Of a DNA stretch of 64,000 nucleotides, positions 1,068-31,204 are shown piece after piece (within the stretch, counting starts at the first letter, position 1; every line of letters starts with the position of its first letter). The notes below the pieces were generated by a model. The model was not told the origin of the DNA and made no database searches. It saw only the letters and a program-made list of their open reading frames with translations. A program made the position numbers and the translations under genes. Source of the stretch: a virus; IMG/VR virus record IMGVR_UViG_3300045988_005351, positions 1 through 64,000 of that record; one strand, 5' to 3'.

Positions 1068-1250
1068 GCCTCCATAGTTCAAAGGATAGAACAACTCTAA
1101 GTAAATCATTTATACTATTGCATAAAAGCTAAGGCTGATTAGCTCAACTGCACAGAGCAGGGGTTTCCTAAACCTCAGGTTGGGAGTTGGAGTCTCCCAT
1201 CAGCCACATTTTGCTTAGAGTAAATACTGGTTCGAGTCCAATTAGAGGTA
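1068..1250 (+). tRNA. split tRNA-like gene: 5' half 1068-1098, 3' half 1210-1250, separated by about 111 nt that contains tRNA-Arg
   Basis: Hand fold. 5' half: acceptor gcctcca, D arm gttc/gaac, anticodon-stem strand actct. 3' half: loop tttgctt, agagt, T arm actgg-ttcgagt-ccaat, acceptor tagaggt. The anticodon stem actct/agagt is perfect across the insertion. The acceptor has one C-A mismatch and one G-U, and the T stem has one mismatch. Possible anticodon UGC with atypical U37. Confidence 0.3.
1133..1206 (+). tRNA. tRNA-Arg (anticodon CCU)
   Basis: Hand-folded cloverleaf: acceptor ggctgat/atcagcc, D stem gctc/gagc, anticodon stem ggggt/acctc with loop ttCCTaa, T stem gggag/ctccc. Atypical T loop ttggagt, and the D loop lacks GG. 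Confidence 0.7.
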
Positions 1251-1547: not shown

Positions 1548-1932
1548 GGGGCTGTTTGGTTTTGACTGGTGGCTACTGGGTATGAGGACATGCAGAGACT
1601 GATGGAGAGACATCAAAACTTTAGGTGGCAACAGAATTTCTGCACCTGTAGCTCTTGCTGCTTAAGCAATCTACTGAGTTAGTCACTGACTTGGAAACAG
1701 AATAGTGACAAAACAAGTAAGGTCAAGAAGGAAGTATAATAAAGCTATACCTACTTTCAGTGCTTAATGGGTGTGACCTTTCAGATTTCTTGCATAGATG
1801 AATGCAAGTGGTGGATGATGTTGACAATCCAGTCAACCCCAGCAGAGAACCAACTGCATAATAAAGTGGTAAGCATGTGTAATCCTTATATTGAGGGCTA
1901 TTAGGACAGGGGTTCAACTCCCCTCAGCTCCA
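1548..1932 (+). ncRNA. ssrA: tmRNA (SsrA), tag peptide GNRISAPVALAA
   Basis: The 5' end ggggctgtttggttttgac and 3' end ggacaggggttcaactcccctcagctcca match the tRNA-like ends of bacterial SsrA (acceptor ggggctg/cagctcc, T arm gggg-ttcaact-cccc). The internal frame ggc aac aga att tct gca cct gta gct ctt gct gct taa (1627-1665) ends in the canonical ALAA-stop. Confidence 0.9.
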
Positions 1933-1963
1933 CAATTAACATCAACAATTAAATTACATTAGA

Positions 1964-2373: not shown

Positions 2374-2709
2374 ATAGCTAACCCTTTAGGTGCTTGTATA
2401 TATATTGTAGTACTACATGGATAACTATATTCATTATGGCTATTTATTGGCTATCATGGAGTAGTTGCCCAGATGTAGCTACTATAATAATATGTACCTT
2501 AGCTGCTATAGGTGTGCAACATCTTATAATCAGAATATTTGTAGAACTTAACAATTGAGAGTAGATTATGTATTTCAAAGAGGATGAGCCAACAGGAGTA
2601 CTTATAACAATACCTCTTCCTGACCCTACTTATCAGGGTAGTTATTGGTATTAGAGTTAAATTTATGTTAAAGGTAGGTCATTTGTTTGATAGTATCAAA
2701 CTTTTGGCT

Positions 2710-2717
2710 TACCTTTG
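2710..2717 (+). promoter_or_regulatory. Bacteroides-type -7 promoter box TAccTTTG (TAnnTTTG)
   Basis: Exact match to the TAnnTTTG consensus, 29 nt upstream of the ATG at 2747. Confidence 0.3.
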
Positions 2718-2746
2718 CAAAGTCAAACAAGATAAAGAGAAGAGAC

Positions 2747-2917
2747 ATGAGTAAAGAGGTATGGAAAGATGTAGTAGGTTATGAGGGATTATACCAAGTT
2801 TCCTCTATAGGAAGAGTAAAGTCCTTACCTAAGAGTGGCTCAGGAGGGCATCTTGAATCTATTATTCTTAAACAGAATACTGATAAGGGTGGTTATAAAT
2901 GGAAATATAAAGTATAA
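2747..2917 (+). pseudogene. truncated homing-endonuclease remnant (NUMOD4-type N-terminus only)
   Basis: MSKEVWKDVVGYEGLYQVSSIGRVKSL is the typical N-terminal DNA-binding module of phage HNH/NUMOD4 endonucleases. The ORF stops after 56 aa with no nuclease domain. Confidence 0.5.
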
Positions 2918-2932
2918 TTTAATTTTAGTGGT

Positions 2933-4351
2933 ATGTGTTCTAAATTAAATCCAAGATTAAAGCCTGCACCTAAGTTTGAGGACACTCAACTGGCAGGTGG
3001 TTATGGTGCATTAGCTGCTAGACAATCCAATGTAGCATTGCTTAGAAGAGCAGTGCTGGCTAATCTCCTTTGGGAAGATGTAGCATACATGGATGGTGAG
3101 AAAGTAGCCAATGAGATTAAGAGGTTAATACCTCTGTGTCCTGCTGAGGATGTATATAACATAGCTCTTGAAGCTAGGTTAATGCAGAAACTGAGACATA
3201 CTCCATTGTTTATAGCAGTGGAAATGTGCAAGTACCCTGAACATAAGTTATTTGTTAAGGACTTGTTACCAAAGATAATCACAAGAGCTGATATGCTCAC
3301 TGACTTCTTGGCTATATATTGGAAGGGCAAGAAATGCCCTATCTGTAACCAAGCTAAGAAAGGTCTGGCTTTAGCCTTCCACAACTTCAATGAGTATAAG
3401 TTGGCTAAGTATGACAGAGATGCTGCTATCAAGCTCAGAGATGTGATGTTCTTGGTACATGCCAAGCCTAGAAATCAGTATGAGCAGGAGTTGTTCAATA
3501 AGGTAGCTGAGAGAACTCTCACACCACCTGAGACATGGGAAGTCATGTTATCTAGAGGTGAGGATAAGAAAGCTACTTGGACTAAGCTCATTACAGAAGG
3601 TAAGATAGGAGGATTAGCTATGTTGAGGAATATAGCTAATATGCAGAAAGCTAATGTGGATAGAAAGACTATTCAAGATGGTCTTAAGACACTGAGAAGC
3701 TCAATGCTGTTACCTCTTGACTTCTGGAAGGCTGCTAGGATGAACTCAGTATTTGAGAGAGACATTGAGGATGCTATGATTGAGGCATATAAGAACTTAC
3801 CTAAACTTCCTGGTAAGACACTGTTTATAGTGGATGTATCAGGTTCTATGGGTTCTTTAACCTCTGGTAGTTCTCAGTTCAATAGAATGGACCAAGCCTG
3901 TGCTATGGCTATCTTGGCAGCTAATCAGTGTGAGGACTATGAGCTTGTAGCCACAGCAGGTAATGATGGTTCAAGAAGGAATGCCTCAGAGTGGATTGAA
4001 TATCCCAAGAGAGGTTTTGCTCTTGCTCCACAGATAATGGAGACCAGACATAGGATTGGTGGTGGAGGTATATTCACCAGACAGTGCCTAGAATGGTGTA
4101 AGAATAAGTTCAAAGACAAGAAGTTTGATAGAATTATTATATTCTCAGACTCTCAAGACTGTGACTATCCTGAGAAGATAGTACCTAAACCATTTGGTAC
4201 ATATAACTACATTGTAGATGTATCTGCCCATACAAGAGGAGTGAACTACAAGGGTGTATGGACTGCTGAAGTGAGTGGTTGGAGCGAGAGCTTTATAACA
4301 TTTATAGCTGCTTTAGAAGGTTTGGAAAACAAATTTGATGAAGATGCTTAA
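2933..4351 (+). CDS. rsr: Ro60/Rsr-like RNA-binding protein (TROVE domain + vWA domain)
   Basis: KYDRDAAIKLRDVMFLVHAKP and GGLAMLRNIANM align by eye with the Ro60 blocks [21 protein letters not shown] and LTALLRNLGKM. A C-terminal vWA MIDAS motif follows (FIVDVSGSMGS). Confidence 0.75.
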   Translation: MCSKLNPRLKPAPKFEDTQLAGGYGALAARQSNVALLRRAVLANLLWEDVAYMDGEKVANEIKRLIPLCPAEDVYNIALEARLMQKLRHTPLFIAVEMCKYPEHKLFVKDLLPKIITRADMLTDFLAIYWKGKKCPICNQAKKGLALAFHNFNEYKLAKYDRDAAIKLRDVMFLVHAKPRNQYEQELFNKVAERTLTPPETWEVMLSRGEDKKATWTKLITEGKIGGLAMLRNIANMQKANVDRKTIQDGLKTLRSSMLLPLDFWKAARMNSVFERDIEDAMIEAYKNLPKLPGKTLFIVDVSGSMGSLTSGSSQFNRMDQACAMAILAANQCEDYELVATAGNDGSRRNASEWIEYPKRGFALAPQIMETRHRIGGGGIFTRQCLEWCKNKFKDKKFDRIIIFSDSQDCDYPEKIVPKPFGTYNYIVDVSAHTRGVNYKGVWTAEVSGWSESFITFIAALEGLENKFDEDA

Positions 4352-4462
4352 GTTGTGTAAAGTTTGTCAAATCTCAGACTTAGTAATGAGTAGAGAAAAG
4401 ATGAAAGAGCAACTGTGATAATTTCAACACTCTGACGAGTGTTCTATAGGCTTTTAACTATA

Positions 4463-4554
4463 AAAGGTATCATTAGTGAGGATAGGAGTTACTTCAGCTT
4501 GAAAATGTAATTCTAGCCAATCAATACTCCTGTCAGGAGTTCTATGATACCTTT
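4463..4554 (+). ncRNA. 92-nt stem-enclosed structured RNA element carrying motif copy 1
   Basis: An 11-bp perfect closing stem aaaggtatcat (4463-4473) / atgataccttt (4544-4554). Inside are the TAGTGA..AGTTACTTCA hairpin and the hairpin actcct-gtc-aggagt. It abuts tRNA-Lys. Confidence 0.35.
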
Positions 4555-4560
4555 CACATG

Positions 4561-4705
4561 GAGGAGTTAGCTCAGATGGTAGAGCAGTTTTATAGAATCA
4601 TACTCTATACACCTTTCTCTCTATATCAATGAGTAGTGAAGTGTAGAGTTACTTCAATAATGCCTTTTAAGCAACAGGTCATAGGTTCAAGTCCTATACT
4701 CCTCC
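4561..4705 (+). tRNA. tRNA-Lys (UUU) interrupted by a 72-nt insertion (4590-4661) in the anticodon stem
   Basis: Acceptor gaggagt/actcctc, D arm gctc-agatggta-gagc, T arm atagg-ttcaagt-cctat. Joining gtt (to 4589) to gc (from 4662) gives anticodon stem gttgc/gcaac with loop ctTTTaa and a canonical 73-nt tRNA. Confidence 0.65.
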
Positions 4706-4769
4706 CTTACTTTGTTGGATTTGTGTGTTCTACCTCACTGGTATGTGAATATAGGTGAGGTTTCTACAA

Positions 4770-4908
4770 GGCGGAGTAGCTAAATGGTAAAGCAACACCC
4801 TTACAGAATTTCTCTGGTAAAGCAGTAGTGAGTTGTTAGGGTTACTTCAAGGTTATAGCATTAGTTTCATGGTACTAAAGTATGTAAGTTCGAGTCTTAC
4901 CTCCGCCA
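4770..4908 (+). tRNA. tRNA-like gene (CAU-type anticodon, 8-nt loop) with a ~66-nt insertion (4795-4860) after the D arm
   Basis: Acceptor ggcggag/ctccgcc, D arm gcta-aatggta-aagc, anticodon stem ttagt/actaa with loop ttCATggt (8 nt), variable agtat, T arm gtaag-ttcgagt-cttac. Confidence 0.55.
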
Positions 4909-5112
4909 CTTATTACCTACCTCACCTAGCGTAGTTGTACAGAGTGAGACCTAATAGGAAGCATCAAAGGAACTATCCTAGCCACACTGGTATGCTGTTC
5001 AGTGAGTGAGAAAATGAGCAGCCCCGAAGCATAGTGGGGATAATGTCAAGGAGTACCATCCTTAAGCAGCTATGTAAAACTGGTTGACAATCTGGAAAGA
5101 CAGATAATAAAT

Positions 5113-5240
5113 GGGGGAGTAGCTAAATTGGTTACAATACTCTAGCTGTTATTCTCTGGAAGCAGTAGTGTTAGCAAAGAGTTACTTCAAGCATTCATCT
5201 GATAAATGAAAGTATATTGGTTCGAGTCCAATCTCCCCCA
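5113..5240 (+). tRNA. tRNA-Ile (GAU) with a ~54-nt insertion (about 5135-5188) in the D loop
   Basis: Acceptor gggggag/ctccccc. D-stem strands gcta (5122-5125) and aagc (5189-5192) are separated by the insertion. Anticodon arm ttcat-ctGATaa-atgaa, variable agtat, T arm attgg-ttcgagt-ccaat. Confidence 0.6.
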
Positions 5241-5464
5241 CAAGATAGAGATTAGTGAATGTTACAGTTACTTCATATTATGACTAGTATATTTGTTTAA
5301 CATTCAATCAAGAAAGGAGTAGATTTATTTACAACTTTTCAATTCAACCAACTGTGGCAGAGTTGTTCTACCTCTATTAAGAGGGCTGTGGTAGCAATAC
5401 TATAGTCCTCTTTCTTTTTGATAACTGTGTTAGCTACATATATTGTATTACTAAAAGAAAAAGT

Positions 5465-5860
5465 ATGACAAAGACAAAGGAAAGTGTCGAGAGAGTCGAG
5501 GACTTGAAGGCACAAGTGAAAGACCTTCTTGGTGTAGATGCCATGATGGATGAAGATGTGACTAAGGACATGAAGGAAACCCTTATCACTCAAGCTAAGA
5601 ACAATGGTGAGGAACACATCGAAGAGGTGATTGACACCATTGAGAAAGCACTTGAGAAGATTAAGGACCCTGAGTTCAAGGCTATCATCGCTTCTATCAT
5701 CTGGACTAAGTGTCCTATGGGTATGCAGGAGTCCTGCATTGAACTCCACAACAAGATACTATGTGCTGCAATGGCTGCTCATATGCAGAAGCACACTGAG
5801 GGCAATCCCCTTGTAGGTCTTGCACTGCTGGCAGCTACATTGAAAAACAAACTGCAATGA
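5465..5860 (+). CDS. hypothetical acidic protein (131 aa)
   Basis: ATG ORF, plausible composition, coupled to the next gene (ATGA overlap at 5857). Confidence 0.55.
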   Translation: MTKTKESVERVEDLKAQVKDLLGVDAMMDEDVTKDMKETLITQAKNNGEEHIEEVIDTIEKALEKIKDPEFKAIIASIIWTKCPMGMQESCIELHNKILCAAMAAHMQKHTEGNPLVGLALLAATLKNKLQ

Positions 5861-6228
5861 GTGAAATCAAGGTGAGTGTCAGTATTACACTACAAGGTGG
5901 TGTGATGCTGACCCAAGCTGAGGCTGAACAGCTTGAGAAGAACAAAGTAGGCACTGGCTATGACCTGACTAGAATCAAGGTTGAGAACAAGAAAGGTAAT
6001 GCTGATGTCATCAACGTGAGGACTAGGAAGTTCAGAACTGCCACACAGACCATAAGCATGTGCAAAGAGGCTTATGAGTACATGACAAGCAAGGATAGCT
6101 GTCCTCCCAGCATCAAACAGTTTGTATGGGCTAAGATGAAGCCTGTACAGAGACTGGAGGCACATCTGGACTTGGTGTGCAAGCACCTCAAAGGCATCTC
6201 CTATACCTATAAGGTATTTGATGATTGA
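5857..6228 (+). CDS. hypothetical protein (123 aa)
   Basis: ATG ORF overlapping the upstream stop. Confidence 0.55.
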   Translation: MSEIKVSVSITLQGGVMLTQAEAEQLEKNKVGTGYDLTRIKVENKKGNADVINVRTRKFRTATQTISMCKEAYEYMTSKDSCPPSIKQFVWAKMKPVQRLEAHLDLVCKHLKGISYTYKVFDD

Positions 6229-12252: not shown

Positions 12253-12447
12253 TCTGTTATATTATTACTCCTGAATATCCTCGAAGCTTTTATAGGAAAC
12301 TATAATGGTAACTTGAGGAGGCATAGTGGGTAAAGCTACAGCCCCAGAGACTAGATGCAGGAGTGCCCTAATAGTAAGGCTAAGGGTAAAGAAATAGTCC
12401 AGACCACAAACAAGTAATTACTTGGTAGTGAAAACTATAGTGGTATG

Positions 12448-28859: not shown

Positions 28860-30980
28860 TGGATGAGTGGTTTGAAGAAGGAAAGCATGAAGCTATCAAG
28901 TACTATGGTGAGCAGATATACTATGTGTCTGGAGTTGCAAACTTATTTAGTGATGCAGAGATAGGATGTCCTTATAAGAATATATCAGTAAGGGAATCAC
29001 TGGAGCTTCTCAGTACACTAAAGGTTGTAGGATTGGATAGTGAGACTAGAGGTACAGAGATATGGCAAGGTCAGCTGCTGTTACTTCAATTAGGTAACAA
29101 GCACTTTCAAGTAGTCATTGACTGTACCACTGTAGATGTCAAGCTATACAAGGAGTTCCTTGAGAGTGATAGGCTTTTCATAATTCATAATGCCAAGTTT
29201 GACCTAAGATGGTTATATAAGGAGGGTATTGTAATCAGAAATGTATTTGATACTTTCCTTGCAGAGAAGATACTGTTCCTGGGATTTCCACCAGGAATAG
29301 TGTCACTCAGCTTGCAGGCTTGTTGTGACAGGTATCTTAATGTCTACCTTGACAAGACAGTCAGAGGTAAGATTAACTATGGTGTCACTGATGAGGTAAT
29401 AATCTATTCAGCCAATGATGTTGTGTTCCTTGAAGATGTCATGGAAGCACAGTTAAAGCAGATAGAGGCTAGAGGTCAGAGAGTTGCCTTAGAGATAGAG
29501 AACAGGTTTGTGAGAGTATTGGCTTATATTGAGTTCTGTGGTATAAGGCTTGACATTGAAAGGTGGAAAGCCAAGATGGTTAAGGATGCTGAAAGACTGA
29601 GAGAAGCAGAGCAGAAACTCAATGATTGGGTTGTAGAGTATGTGATGTCCAAAGGAGACACAGATGCTATAGCCTATGATGTTCAGACTAAGGGAGGAAA
29701 GGTAAAGAGAGCTAAGGGTACTGTAGGTAAGTATGTTGCCATAGACCCGCAGCAGAACCTCTTTGAGGAGAACAAGCCAAGATGTATCATTAACTGGAAC
29801 AGTAACAAGCAGGTTATACCATTGTTTGAGGAGTTAGGGTTCAATGTATGGGCTAAAGACAAGAAGACTGGAAAGATGAAGAAGTCAGTAGACTCAAAGC
29901 TGCTTAAACAGCAGTTGGATAAGAGTCCTCTGGCTAAGTTATATCTTGATTACTCTGGTGAGTTCAAGGTAGTTACTTCATTTGGTCAGAACTTCTTGGA
30001 TGCAGTCAATCCTGTTACAGGGAGAATACACCCTACATTCAATCAGATGATGGACACTGGCAGGTTGAGTTGTGGTAAAGGAGGAAAGAAAGGTGGAGGT
30101 AAGACTAAGGATGATGACTTTGCTGAGGAAGAGCAGACTGAGCAGGATGCTGATGTTATCATAGCAGTAGATAAGAGTGTGAATGTTCAGCAGTTGCCAT
30201 CTGATGCAGAGACTAGAGCTTGCTTCATACCTGATAGAGACCATATGTTAGTTGATTGTGATTATGGAGACCAAGAAGGTCATGTCTTTACTGAGCTAAG
30301 TCAGGATAAGGCATGGATTGATTTCTATAATGACCCCAATGAGAGAGATGGTCACTCCTTTGTAGCCAAGATGATATTCTCTGATGAGCTAAAGGATATA
30401 CCAGAGAAGGAAGTAAAGAAGAAGAGGAAAGACTTGAGGGATGCTGCTAAGCCAGCTAGGTTCACATTTAATTATAATGGAACAGCCAATGCTCTAGCAG
30501 CTAACACAGGTAAGTCTCTTGAGTTCTGTGAGTTATGCTTTAAGAAGTATTTCTCAGCATTCAAAGGTATAGCCAGCTACTTTAGGGTAAGTAAGGCTAA
30601 TATGTGGAAAAGAGGTTATATCCTAATCTCAAAGTACACTGGATTGAGAGCTTACATCTATGACTATCCTATACTGAAAGGCATAGAGAGAAGAATCAAG
30701 GGAATGGGTCAGGAGTTCTGGGATTCCTATAGGAAAGCCAGAGACTCTGGTCAAGTCATTGATGATGTCCCTGTTGTGGTTCTTCAACAGATGGCAAGGA
30801 AGTTTGCCAATGGAGAGCCTATGGAGGCTATTGCTATAAGGTATGAGTATAAGGTCAAGAAGGGTAAGAAGATTGAGACAAAGTATATAGACATTAACAG
30901 GGAGACTGTATTGATTAAACTCTGGAAGCATCTGGCAAAGAGGAGGTCATCATCTGAGAATCAGTCCTGTAACTATCCCT
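28859..30980 (+). CDS. family A DNA polymerase, exon 1 (3'-5' exonuclease + palm/fingers to motif B)
   Basis: Exo I VGLDSET, Exo II HNAKFDLRWL, Exo III YSANDVVFL, motif A LVDCDYGDQEGHVF, motif B RDAAKPARFTFNYNGT. Homology ends at ...ENQSCNYP; the unspliced frame adds unrelated LIVGAYSGDII-stop. Confidence 0.75.
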
Positions 30981-31204
30981 TAATTGTGGGGGCATATAGT
31001 GGTGACATTATATGAAAACTCAGTGAATTGCTGGAAGGCTAAGGAGAAATCTATGCTAATCAGCAGCCAAGACTTGTAGAAATGCAAGTAAGGTTCAGAG
31101 ACTAATCAAAGTAAGCTAAGGAGAAATCTATGCTGAAATGGGCAAGAGTGCTGAGTATCTCTTAATTATTTATTTACCCTATTGGACAATTAAGAAATAA
31201 TTTG

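Follow-up and report, generated by a model that had tools for sequence, protein, structure and literature searches.

What is the short motif that recurs five times in a viral DNA directly after a gene for a TROVE/Ro60-like protein, and what purpose does it serve? The DNA in question is a stretch of 64,000 nucleotides (nt), hereafter the window, comprising positions 1 to 64,000 of the IMG/VR virus record IMGVR_UViG_3300045988_005351. It belongs to a crAss-like phage: blastn and tblastn match it to Kehishuvirus and Mahstovirus phages (crAss001, cr112_1, cr106_1). Ro60 and its Y RNAs are conserved from bacteria to humans, and the role of the second module of the RNA is poorly understood. Using pattern searches, covariance models and comparisons of related loci, we found that the motif is the 5' half of a larger conserved RNA module and has no hairpin of its own, and that the three copies located inside transfer RNA (tRNA) genes are a circularly permuted form of this module. 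By analogy with known Y RNAs, we consider it probable, at roughly three chances in four, that the array is a set of phage Y RNAs, in which the Ro60-like ring protein would be docked by the module, with the motif forming part of the Ro60-binding stem.

Copies of the motif in the window

The strict form of the motif, TAGTGA-N7-8-AGTTACTTCA, was found exactly at 4474-4496, 4634-4656 and 5253-5275, and not once in 100 shuffles of the window. The slightly looser TAGTG-N9-RGTTACTTCA brought in 4826-4849 (with GGTTAC) and 5166-5189 (with TAGTGT), compared to an expectation of 0.04. These are the five copies listed in a preliminary description of this DNA, which was also correct in that one copy opens a 92-nt element (4463-4554) with an 11-bp closing stem, three are in the 3' part of tRNA-gene insertions, and one follows tRNA-Ile. 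All five fall inside 0.9 kb directly 3' of the TROVE/Ro60-like gene (Table 1). On its own, GTTACTTCA occurs seven times in 64 kb versus 0.81 expected, with five of the seven inside this RNA cluster of ~0.9 kb. The occurrences outside the cluster, at 29080 and 29972, and a match of the loose regular expression at 29956 are unmatched by the covariance models R1 and R2 described below, and are therefore taken as chance.

The motif as the 5' half of an RNA module

Covariance model R1 was built from 20 stand-alone units, and includes 9 P1, 2 junction and 8 P2 pairs. From the base up, the module consists of (i) helix P1; (ii) a bulged U; (iii) an A-U and a G-C pair, formed by AG of UAGUG with CU of a distant GUUCU; (iv) an asymmetric internal loop, with UG.. 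opposite ..NNU-K-UU; (v) helix P2; and (vi) the invariant UUACUUC(A). The linear order of a stand-alone unit is P1, UAGUG, 8-11 nt, UUACUUCA, a variable region, the complement of the 8-11 nt, NN(G/U)UUCU, and the second P1 strand; the element previously taken for a spacer of 7-8 nt is the 5' strand of P2, the partner of which is distant. Sequences of both helices differ by unit: P1 is represented, for example, by aatgttgta/tacaacatt, atgccat/atggcat and aaggtatcat/atgatacctt, and P2 by GGAUAGGAG/CUCCUGUC, AAUAGAC/GUCUGUU and ACAGAU/AUCUGU.

The helices are conserved through compensatory changes. Among 98 distinct R1 sequences from 55 close loci, 96.1% of the cells had standard pairs, and double changes were found in 19/19 pairs; the covariation score was 0.815, compared to 0.197 in shuffled alignments and 0.05-0.16 with partners slid by 1-3 columns. 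For 30 RNAs of distant phages, 89.7% of the cells were paired, and the score was 0.775 versus 0.214. It should be noted that these sequences share descent, and the shuffle controls thus overstate significance; the slid controls and the distant set weigh most. The E-values of R1 and of the second model, R2, are rough, and alignments A2 and A3 were fitted to the model structure. The junction pair between A of UAGUG and the last U of GUUCU was A-U in 90 and G-C in 8 of the 98 sequences, and was unpaired in none. The UGGUG variant goes with GUUCC, such that G replaces A and C replaces U, and the preceding U is a one-base bulge. The minimum-free-energy fold of the first stand-alone unit alone (unit A, Table 1) consisted of P1, the bulge, the two pairs, the loop and P2 (z=-3.9).

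The seven bases UUACUUC, 3' of the P2 5' strand, are essentially invariant, and single-stranded in the model; the strand opposite them is A-rich and mostly ends in an A that is able to pair with the first U. A general pairing partner for UUACUUCA (e.g., GUAA or UGAAGU in the apical domain) was not found by eye, with only lineage-specific options available. One such option is seen in the first unit after TROVE in loci L033-L038 and L005 (e.g., L037 5413-5551), which is stand-alone and carries an apical native-order tRNA-like cloverleaf with the anticodon loop CUUCUAA or CUUUUAA: the acceptor 5' strand would be ACUUCAU of the motif, pairing with AUGAGAU (6/7 pairs, by eye) into an acceptor-like stem. 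The UG/GUU internal loop did not fit a K-turn or loop-E consensus by eye.

In the preliminary description, the motif was interpreted as a local 5-bp hairpin, AGTGA/TTACT, conserved in sequence with no covariation. The latter statement does not hold: distant partners covary with the spacer and with one base of TAGTG. For a free-standing hairpin, AGUGA/UUACU with a 9-11-nt loop, as the functional unit, four of the five pairs are always possible because the bases are invariant; however, no compensatory change was observed, the fifth pair fails in 16/31 sequences, and the TTACATCA variant turns the outer A-U pair into A.A. Furthermore, the bases of the hairpin loop are paired in P2, its A and G pair with CU of GUUCU and covary, and the minimum-free-energy fold of unit A has P1 and P2 instead of the local hairpin. 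We rejected this candidate, given the lack of compensatory change and the engagement of its bases in covarying pairs, and consider it very improbable.

Circularly permuted copies inside tRNA genes

In the tRNA-gene copies, the motif is preceded by the P2 partner of the spacer, and the elements follow one another as tRNA, linker, P2 3' strand, N2-3 UUCU, a capped hairpin of 3-5 bp, UAGUG, P2 5' strand, UUACUUCA, linker, tRNA. The capping hairpins are CUG-GAAG-CAG and CUC-...-GAG here, and CCC-GAAG-GGG, AUG-GAAG-CAU and ACA-...-UGU in relatives. With the P2 partner upstream and a hairpin at the place of P1, P1 carries a cap, and the opening of the module is at the apical end. The upstream similarity "ttctctgg(t)aaagcaGTAGTG" that had been noticed between insertions is genuine, and comprises the second conserved block (UUCU) and the short capping hairpin (CUG-loop-CAG). 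In 31 distinct embedded modules, 92.6% of the cells pair, and the covariation score was 0.506, compared to 0.201 shuffled and at most 0.12 slid; the same junction pair as in the stand-alone form, with columns reversed, was U-A in 23 and C-G in 8 of these sequences, and unpaired in none. Model R2, built from the embedded modules, matched exactly the three embedded copies in the window. One additional R2 match, 4425-4498, was discarded as an artefact, being composed of the 3' half of a decayed unit and the 5' half of unit A.

The tRNA bodies around the inserts, which are ~55-75 nt long, are complete, with 7/7 acceptor pairs and T arms. None of the three chimeras was called intact by ARAGORN; with the insert deleted, the calls were Lys(UUU), Ile(GAU) and one tRNA with a four-base anticodon (catg). 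The Lys-type insert is between anticodon-stem positions 28 and 29, flanked by GU and UGC here and by GU and AGC, GC and AGC, or CG and AGC in relatives (by eye). The other two inserts are in the D-loop, directly before the D-stem 3' strand (by eye, from relatives). The Rfam tRNA model scored 48.7 bits for the chimera at 4770-4908 by skipping 67 nt, and 28.6 and 21.6 bits, below or at the threshold, for the other two. The anticodon loops of the Lys (CUUUUAA) and Ile (CUGAUAA) chimeras have 7 nt, U33 and a purine at 37; the loop of 4770-4908 is UUCAUGGU, with 8 nt. In relatives, anticodon stems are paired and most loops have 7 nt with U33 and a purine at 37, with the anticodon itself varying; several relatives have aberrant loops of 8-9 nt or with A33.

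Several additional features of the chimeras were observed. In the 4770-4908 chimera (loop at ~4866-4873), ARAGORN reads CAUG; on this scaffold, close relatives carry UUUGGGU (Pro UGG), a 7-nt loop. Likewise, L004, L007, L055 and L033-L038 share chimeric scaffolds with the window (5113-5240) and have different anticodons: GAU, GGU, AUU and CAU are found on the stem TTCAT/ATGAA, and UGU/GGU and GUG/UUU on other scaffolds. Two apparent recombinants were seen, one at L014 5066-5216, combining the 5' half of one chimeric tRNA with the 3' half of another such that the acceptor strands are mismatched, and one at L024 ~4817-4895, combining the 5' half of a stand-alone unit with the 3' half of a tRNA.

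Because the three inserts interrupt tRNAs, introns and ribozymes were considered. The inserts could be introns or intervening sequences of true phage tRNAs, with the module as an excision signal for a nuclease, of host or phage, and a ligase, and with the stand-alone copies as by-products. Deletion of the inserts makes the Lys(UUU) and Ile(GAU) genes callable while the full genes are not, most relatives retain anticodon loops of 7 nt with U33 and a purine at 37, and a large arm at 28/29 or in the D-loop would fit poorly on the ribosome, judging from tRNA-ribosome structures. However, the module also occurs independently, closed by its own covarying P1, and as a YrlA-type stem without any tRNA exon. 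Conservation is inside the module, whereas the linkers at the exon junctions vary among relatives in length and sequence. No group I intron or self-cleaving ribozyme core was matched by Rfam in 4300-5450 at E<=10; intron and ribozyme ideas (group I, hammerhead/twister/pistol-type, and archaeal bulge-helix-bulge, for which the junctions were inspected by eye) have no model support, and the stand-alone and YrlA-type contexts speak against them. In addition, over 23 canonical tRNAs, among them Lys, Ile, Thr and Pro, are encoded elsewhere in crAss001, and several relatives have the aberrant anticodon loops mentioned above. We therefore consider excision of the inserts improbable. The separate tRNA set, the aberrant loops and the module-centred conservation argue against the chimeras being simple decoding tRNAs, and the paired anticodon stems and the mostly preserved U33 and purine 37, under a changing anticodon, argue for some tRNA-like selection.

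Linkage of the module to TROVE genes across phages

The preliminary description called for a pattern search in the window and related genomes and for covariance models. Each of the 57 related crAss-like loci (TROVE identity of 68-96%) contains 2-6 matches of the relaxed pattern T[AG]GTG-N-TTAC[N]TC, always on the TROVE strand; thus, absence from homologous loci, which had been named as a reason to abandon the motif, was not observed. In most loci, the first match starts ~100 nt or less from the TROVE stop codon, whereas in L046-L048 it starts 2.4-3.7 kb downstream; stray matches elsewhere are few. In the close loci, 126/126 R1 matches are on the TROVE strand. R1 and R2 matched only the TROVE-adjacent cluster: no other part of the window was matched by R1, and of the 102.7-kb crAss001 genome, of which 100 kb were searched, only the region after Gp96, the TROVE protein, had matches. 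In records of crAss-like phages, the 0.5-0.9 kb 3' of the TROVE gene are unannotated, save for a coding sequence of an HNH endonuclease in cr112_1.

The module also adjoins TROVE genes that are 28-44% identical to that of the window, in unrelated phages, on the same strand and either up- or downstream. An exact-pattern, motif-only scan of IMG/VR yielded at least 120 loci, mostly single chance matches, which were then filtered by R1 and tblastn. Among the matches listed, 18 loci had R1 matches at E<0.01. A TROVE gene is present in the fetched stretch of 12 of these 18, and two are other stretches of TROVE-carrying crAss contigs; of the remaining four, three end near the R1 matches, and L159 has no TROVE gene in the 11.4 kb fetched. 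Conversely, of the 102 listed loci without an R1 match, only one has TROVE, and the same locus scores with R1 at a looser threshold. Among the matches listed, TROVE identity to the protein of the window is 28-64% in the divergent R1 loci and ~80% in close crAss-like ones. In the divergent loci, the RNAs share the strand of TROVE and mostly precede it, in contrast to the downstream RNAs of the window, and other neighbour genes differ. Homologues of TROVE with 30-37% identity were found by tblastn in phages of Caulobacter, Xanthomonas, Ralstonia, Brevundimonas, Rhizobium and Microcystis. A scan of GTDB genomes with the TROVE protein returned three short contigs of metagenome-assembled genomes, which are probably phage DNA and are uninformative on bacterial Rsr loci.

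Two of the loci have additional features. In L159, the R1 matches are at 3759-6071 on the minus strand, with a protein containing PARP-catalytic and WGR domains encoded upstream. In L104 (TROVE 64% identical), a pistol ribozyme (12349-12409, plus strand; Rfam 57.9 bits, threshold 34.5) directly follows the Y RNA/tRNA array.

The distribution of copies bears on two further interpretations. According to the first, a miniature mobile element left the repeats as its ends or relics, or the repeats are bound by a protein at the DNA level. The copy number of 2-6 among relatives and the recombinants between copies (L014, L024) are in line with mobility; however, both in the window and in the 100 kb of crAss001 searched, every copy is on one strand of a single locus rather than dispersed, and the insertion positions in tRNAs are orthologous across relatives. 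Compensatory changes that preserve RNA helices, including G-U pairs, would be meaningless for a DNA site, and we give this interpretation next to no credence. According to the second, the motif is a processing signal, i.e., an RNase recognition element that directs the dicing of one long early transcript into small RNAs and tRNAs and has no protein partner of its own. In its favour, the units seem to share one transcription unit ended by a terminator-like hairpin, and abut each other and the tRNAs. However, this would leave unexplained ~20 covarying pairs around invariant loops, the permuted copies within tRNA bodies, and the strict co-occurrence with TROVE in phages with different other neighbours, and it appears distinctly unlikely. 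Among the roles named in the preliminary description, a processing signal and a miniature mobile element are thus little supported, whereas a binding site for the Ro60-like protein is the role favoured by the evidence.

Continuity with YrlA-type Y RNAs

Upstream of TROVE in Xanthomonas phage Olaya, the Rfam YrlA model was matched at three intervals (50, 39.6 and 25.8 bits; threshold 69), and R1 at a fourth RNA. Each of the YrlA intervals is framed by the module: GCUGG-UGGUG-AAGCACACGG-UUACUUC, followed by a T arm, an acceptor-like hairpin and a D arm, and then CCGUGUGC-GCCCCAUUCC-CCAGC. The same frame, P1/UGGUG-or-UGGCG/P2/UUACUUC.../GUUCC/P1', surrounds YrlA matches in Olaya, Caulobacter phage CcrColossus, and the IMG/VR loci L129 and L164, where a motif or R1 match overlaps the YrlA match. 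The framed intervals score 25-50 bits with the YrlA model (E down to 4e-10), under the gathering score. CcrColossus has at least five units with UGGCG ... (A/U)UACUUCG ... GUUCC, and was named as a phage with Y RNA-like RNAs (PMC12135203); Microcystis phage Mvi-JY20 has two module units. Given that the module encloses YrlA-matched intervals, sequence comparison identifies it as the basal stem of a lineage of YrlA-type Y RNAs. The YrlA consensus AAUGCUU, which belongs to the GNCGAAN0-1G motif (PMC4201824), is replaced by UUACU(U) in the cmscan alignment, where CGaAUGCuu of the model is matched by CGGUUACU.

By the features that define these RNAs, the assignment of the window units is mixed. The gathering threshold of YrlA (RF02553; 69 bits) is reached neither by the window units (4300-5450) nor by the module-bearing RNAs of Olaya, CcrColossus and the IMG/VR loci. 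The YrlA order of T arm, closed acceptor-like hairpin and D arm is found in distant relatives; in the window, units A and E are without T and D arms, and the chimeras have the native order. For Y RNAs in the broad sense, a Ro60/TROVE gene on the same strand within ~4 kb is present in the window, the 57 related loci and the divergent phages; such adjacency is the criterion that defines bacterial YrlA RNAs (PMC4201824). A length of ~80-130 nt with an end-paired bulged stem and a variable top describes units A (92 nt) and E (138 nt), and does not describe the chimeras.

Comparison with known systems reveals both shared and distinct features. Like YrlA and YrlB (RF02553; PMC4201824), the RNAs of the window are located within a few kb of a Ro60/TROVE gene, on its strand, and a locus often has several of them; their ends pair as a basal stem with a conserved unpaired motif just after the 5' strand, and they combine a stem, here the putative Ro-binding one, with a variable or tRNA-like domain. 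Units A and E resemble YrlB in having no tRNA-like domain. Unlike YrlA, the module of the window adds a conserved layer below P2 (the bulged U, the A-U and G-C pairs, the UG/GUU loop and P1), which is outside the Rfam model, and in the chimeras the acceptor ends are open and an anticodon arm is present, in contrast to YrlA, where the acceptor hairpin is closed and an anticodon arm is lacking. The local order in the Lys chimera (UUACUUCA, anticodon hairpin, variable loop, T arm) is that of the third units of Olaya and CcrColossus; as this chimera has YrlA-like local order but ends in an acceptor stem and has P1 closed, it looks, by eye, like a circular permutation of a YrlA-type RNA.

Ro60 of Thermus phage phiLo with its Yrl1 and Yrl2 RNAs (PMC12135203) is a similar case of a phage Ro60 homologue with adjacent stem-bulge-stem RNAs, which for phiLo are bound in vitro. 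However, the phiLo RNAs were picked by CGAA and are upstream of the gene, whereas the window has the blocks UAGUG/UUACUUC/GUUCU and 5-6 RNAs that include tRNA chimeras. Metazoan Y RNAs are likewise ~80-140 nt long and have paralogues; their two ends pair as a terminal stem, the conserved helix close to the base has a bulge, and the upper loop varies. They differ in having GGUCCGA with a bulged C and in being polymerase III genes, in contrast to the bulged U, AG/CU pairs and UUACUUC of a phage early operon. The chimeras also resemble engineered "tRNA scaffold" RNAs and circularly permuted tRNA genes in that a structured module is grafted into a tRNA body; such a graft would give the chimera tRNA-type ends and stability. 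Unlike tRNA scaffolds, the grafts of the window are natural, are located at 28/29 or in the D-loop with the anticodon arm kept, and consist of a permuted Y RNA stem.

Organization of the array

The array contains five modules and one decayed copy, and extends 110-1030 nt 3' of the TROVE open reading frame (ORF) on the plus strand (Table 1). The TROVE protein also has weak Ro60-vWA and VWA_2 matches, and its closest relative of solved structure by sequence is Ro60 of Thermus phage phiLo (9l5y/9kop; E=1.3e-13, residues 25-463). The decayed unit has an intact 3' half, whereas its 5' half (P1, UAGUG and UUACUUCA) is lost or degenerate, with TCTCAGACTTAGTAATGA at 4372-4389, and no R1 match was obtained for it. 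The 3' half is near-identical to intact units of relatives with 88-96% identical TROVE proteins, and thus looks like the remnant of a recent decay or deletion. The terminator scan found no second terminator-like site on the plus strand within 2700-5700; as the only such site closes the array, the TROVE gene and the RNA array are likely to form one transcription unit.

Other parts of the window are worth recording. The 204-nt spacer between the second and third chimeras (together with 4706-4769) is conserved in close relatives and has predicted hairpins with one CCCC/GGGG to CCUC/GGAG double change; it has no Rfam match, and may be a further small RNA. The apical domain of unit E contains the Shine-Dalgarno-like AAGAAAGGAGUAGAUUU, which is conserved between the lineages of the window and crAss001 and is followed by no consistent ORF. 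A transfer-messenger RNA (tmRNA) and a tRNA-Arg are located 5' of the TROVE gene on the same strand; since the phage carries a tmRNA, its host is bacterial. The window has one group I intron, outside the array.

Table 1. Positions of the TROVE gene, the RNA array and other RNA features in the window.
Feature	Position	Strand	Details
tRNA-Arg(CCU)	1133-1207	+	
tmRNA	1548-1935	+	Rfam 91 bits; uncalled by ARAGORN
TROVE/Ro60-like gene, 472 aa	2933-4351	+	ORF; Pfam TROVE E=1.7e-10; presumed protein partner
Decayed first Y-like unit	4410-4452	+	Aligned to intact units of L004, L049, L055, L006; P2 3' strand CUCUGAC 4430-4436, GUUCU 4441-4445, P1 3' strand AUAGGCU 4446-4452
Stand-alone unit A, 92 nt	4463-4554	+	R1 67.9 bits, E=1.8e-14; P1 4463-4473/4544-4554; bulged U4474; A4475-U4543, G4476-C4542; internal loop 4477-4480/4535-4541; P2 4481-4489/4526-4534; UUACUUCA 4489-4496; variable apical part 4497-4525
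Motif copy 1 (UAGUG, P2 5' strand, UUACUUCA)	4474-4496	+	In unit A
tRNA-Lys(UUU)-like chimera	4561-4705	+	R2 54.4 bits; partial Rfam tRNA match; permuted module at 28/29, 4598-4658: P2 3' strand 4603-4612, UUUCU 4614-4618, capped P1 hairpin 4619-4633, motif copy 2 4634-4656
Chimera with 8-nt anticodon loop UUCAUGGU	4770-4908	+	R2 61.4 bits; Rfam tRNA 48.7 bits; module in D-loop, 4793-4851: P2 3' strand 4798-4806, UUUCU in 4807-4813, cap CUG-GUAAAG-CAG 4814-4825, motif copy 3 4826-4849
Conserved spacer, 204 nt	4909-5112		
tRNA-Ile(GAU)-like chimera	5113-5240	+	R2 63.8 bits; Rfam tRNA 28.6 bits; module between D-loop and D-stem 3' strand, 5135-5191: P2 3' strand 5140-5148, UUCU in 5149-5155, cap CUG-GAAG-CAG 5156-5165, motif copy 4 5166-5189
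Stand-alone unit E, 138 nt, long apical domain	5242-5379	+	R1 41.9 bits, E=8e-8; orthologous terminal units in relatives; P1 5244-5252/5370-5378, motif copy 5 5253-5275, P2 3' strand 5352-5360, GUUCU 5365-5369
Shine-Dalgarno-like sequence in unit E	5310-5326		
Terminator-like hairpin and T-run	5379-5420	+	Terminator scan: 15-pair stem, then TCTTTTTGAT
Group I catalytic intron	30971-31204	+	Rfam 66 bits (threshold 50)

A proposed role as phage Y RNAs

The proposal that the array represents phage Y RNAs builds on the conserved covarying helices, which occur in two topologies, on their confinement to the TROVE locus, and on the association with TROVE genes over deep divergence together with the continuity with YrlA, all of which are observed. 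A role as a Ro60 site is favoured because the module is tied to TROVE genes across divergent phages, on the same strand and either up- or downstream, and because it is the basal stem of RNAs that are recognised by the Rfam YrlA model in some phages. No rival explanation covers the TROVE linkage as well as the stand-alone and YrlA-type contexts. Binding of a phage Ro60 protein to adjacent Y RNA-like RNAs has an experimental precedent (PMC12135203).

Under this proposal, the TROVE protein would bind the module, most likely at the invariant loops, i.e., UUACUUC and/or the region of the bulged U and UG-GUU, and the docking would parallel that of known Y RNAs, which proceeds through their conserved, bulged basal stem. 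The partner to which the ribonucleoprotein (RNP) is tethered would be set by the variable part above P2: a hairpin domain is present in units A and E, and in general the variable domain or the tRNA body may recruit or mimic another component (PMC4201824, PMC12135203). In the permuted copies, P1 would be capped by a loop and the open end would lead into a complete tRNA body with free acceptor ends, a layout resembling a YrlA-type Y RNA with its termini moved to the acceptor stem. The TROVE gene of crAss001 is an early gene, expressed within 10 minutes of infection (PMC8375218), and the RNP would therefore act early. The contacted nucleotides named above are thus putative, the mature chimeras may or may not retain the module, and PNPase is one possible downstream partner.

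Several points weigh against this proposal. Binding of these RNAs by the TROVE protein is something that we infer by analogy. The GNCGAAN0-1G motif, which was proposed as a Ro60 contact by Chen et al. (PMC4201824), i.e., the CGAA of bacterial and phage Y RNAs (PMC4201824, PMC12135203), is absent, and (A/G)G-UUACUUC(A) is found at the equivalent place. The Rfam models of YrlA and Y_RNA had no match in the cluster of the window, not even at E<=10; Rfam searches, run at the gathering score for the whole window and at E<=10 for the cluster, yielded for the cluster tRNA fragments only, with no Y RNA, YrlA, intron or ribozyme. L159, a 31-kb viral contig, has three R1 matches and no TROVE gene in the stretch fetched, and three more loci end too near the R1 matches for TROVE to be called. 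Kinship of the sequences inflates significance when it is derived from shuffling. Finally, the capped permuted copies do not have free P1 ends; if Ro60 needs termini near the stem, these copies could not be bound in the same mode.

A more far-reaching possibility, which is speculative and which we regard as rather unlikely, is that the "interrupted tRNAs" mature with the module kept, as circularly permuted YrlA-type Y RNAs with free acceptor ends and with real, fast-changing anticodon arms that tether the Ro60 ring to tRNA-recognising machinery. If so, the targets would be synthetases, EF-Tu or the ribosome, modification enzymes, or host anticodon nucleases, and crAss-like phages would possess an early Ro60-guided tRNA decoy or tRNA quality-control system. 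Switching of anticodons among close relatives (GAU/GGU/AUU/CAU on one scaffold) would then reflect an arms race.

Significance

To our knowledge, a Y RNA stem permuted into full tRNA bodies has not been described, and our search of the literature found no paper linking crAss-like phages with Ro60 or Y RNAs. That Y RNAs adjoin phage Ro60 genes is already known; the RNAs described here, however, match no Rfam family at threshold, and for a module core built into tRNA genes we found no earlier report. The CcrColossus RNAs, and hence the YrlA form of the module, may have been tabulated in Chen et al. without the motif being singled out.

The crAss-like phages rank with the most abundant viruses in the human gut; one relative, crAss001, grows in culture. 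In these phages, the ~0.9-1 kb of unannotated "intergenic" DNA beside the TROVE gene would receive a function class. The findings also provide a consensus of Ro60-associated RNAs (bulged U, AG/CU pairs, UUACUUC and GUUCU) that is outside the current Rfam YrlA model and is common to phages of Bacteroides, Xanthomonas, Caulobacter and Microcystis. The wiring of one module in two topologies, including full tRNA bodies, offers a handle on whether Ro60 RNPs act on or through the tRNA machinery.

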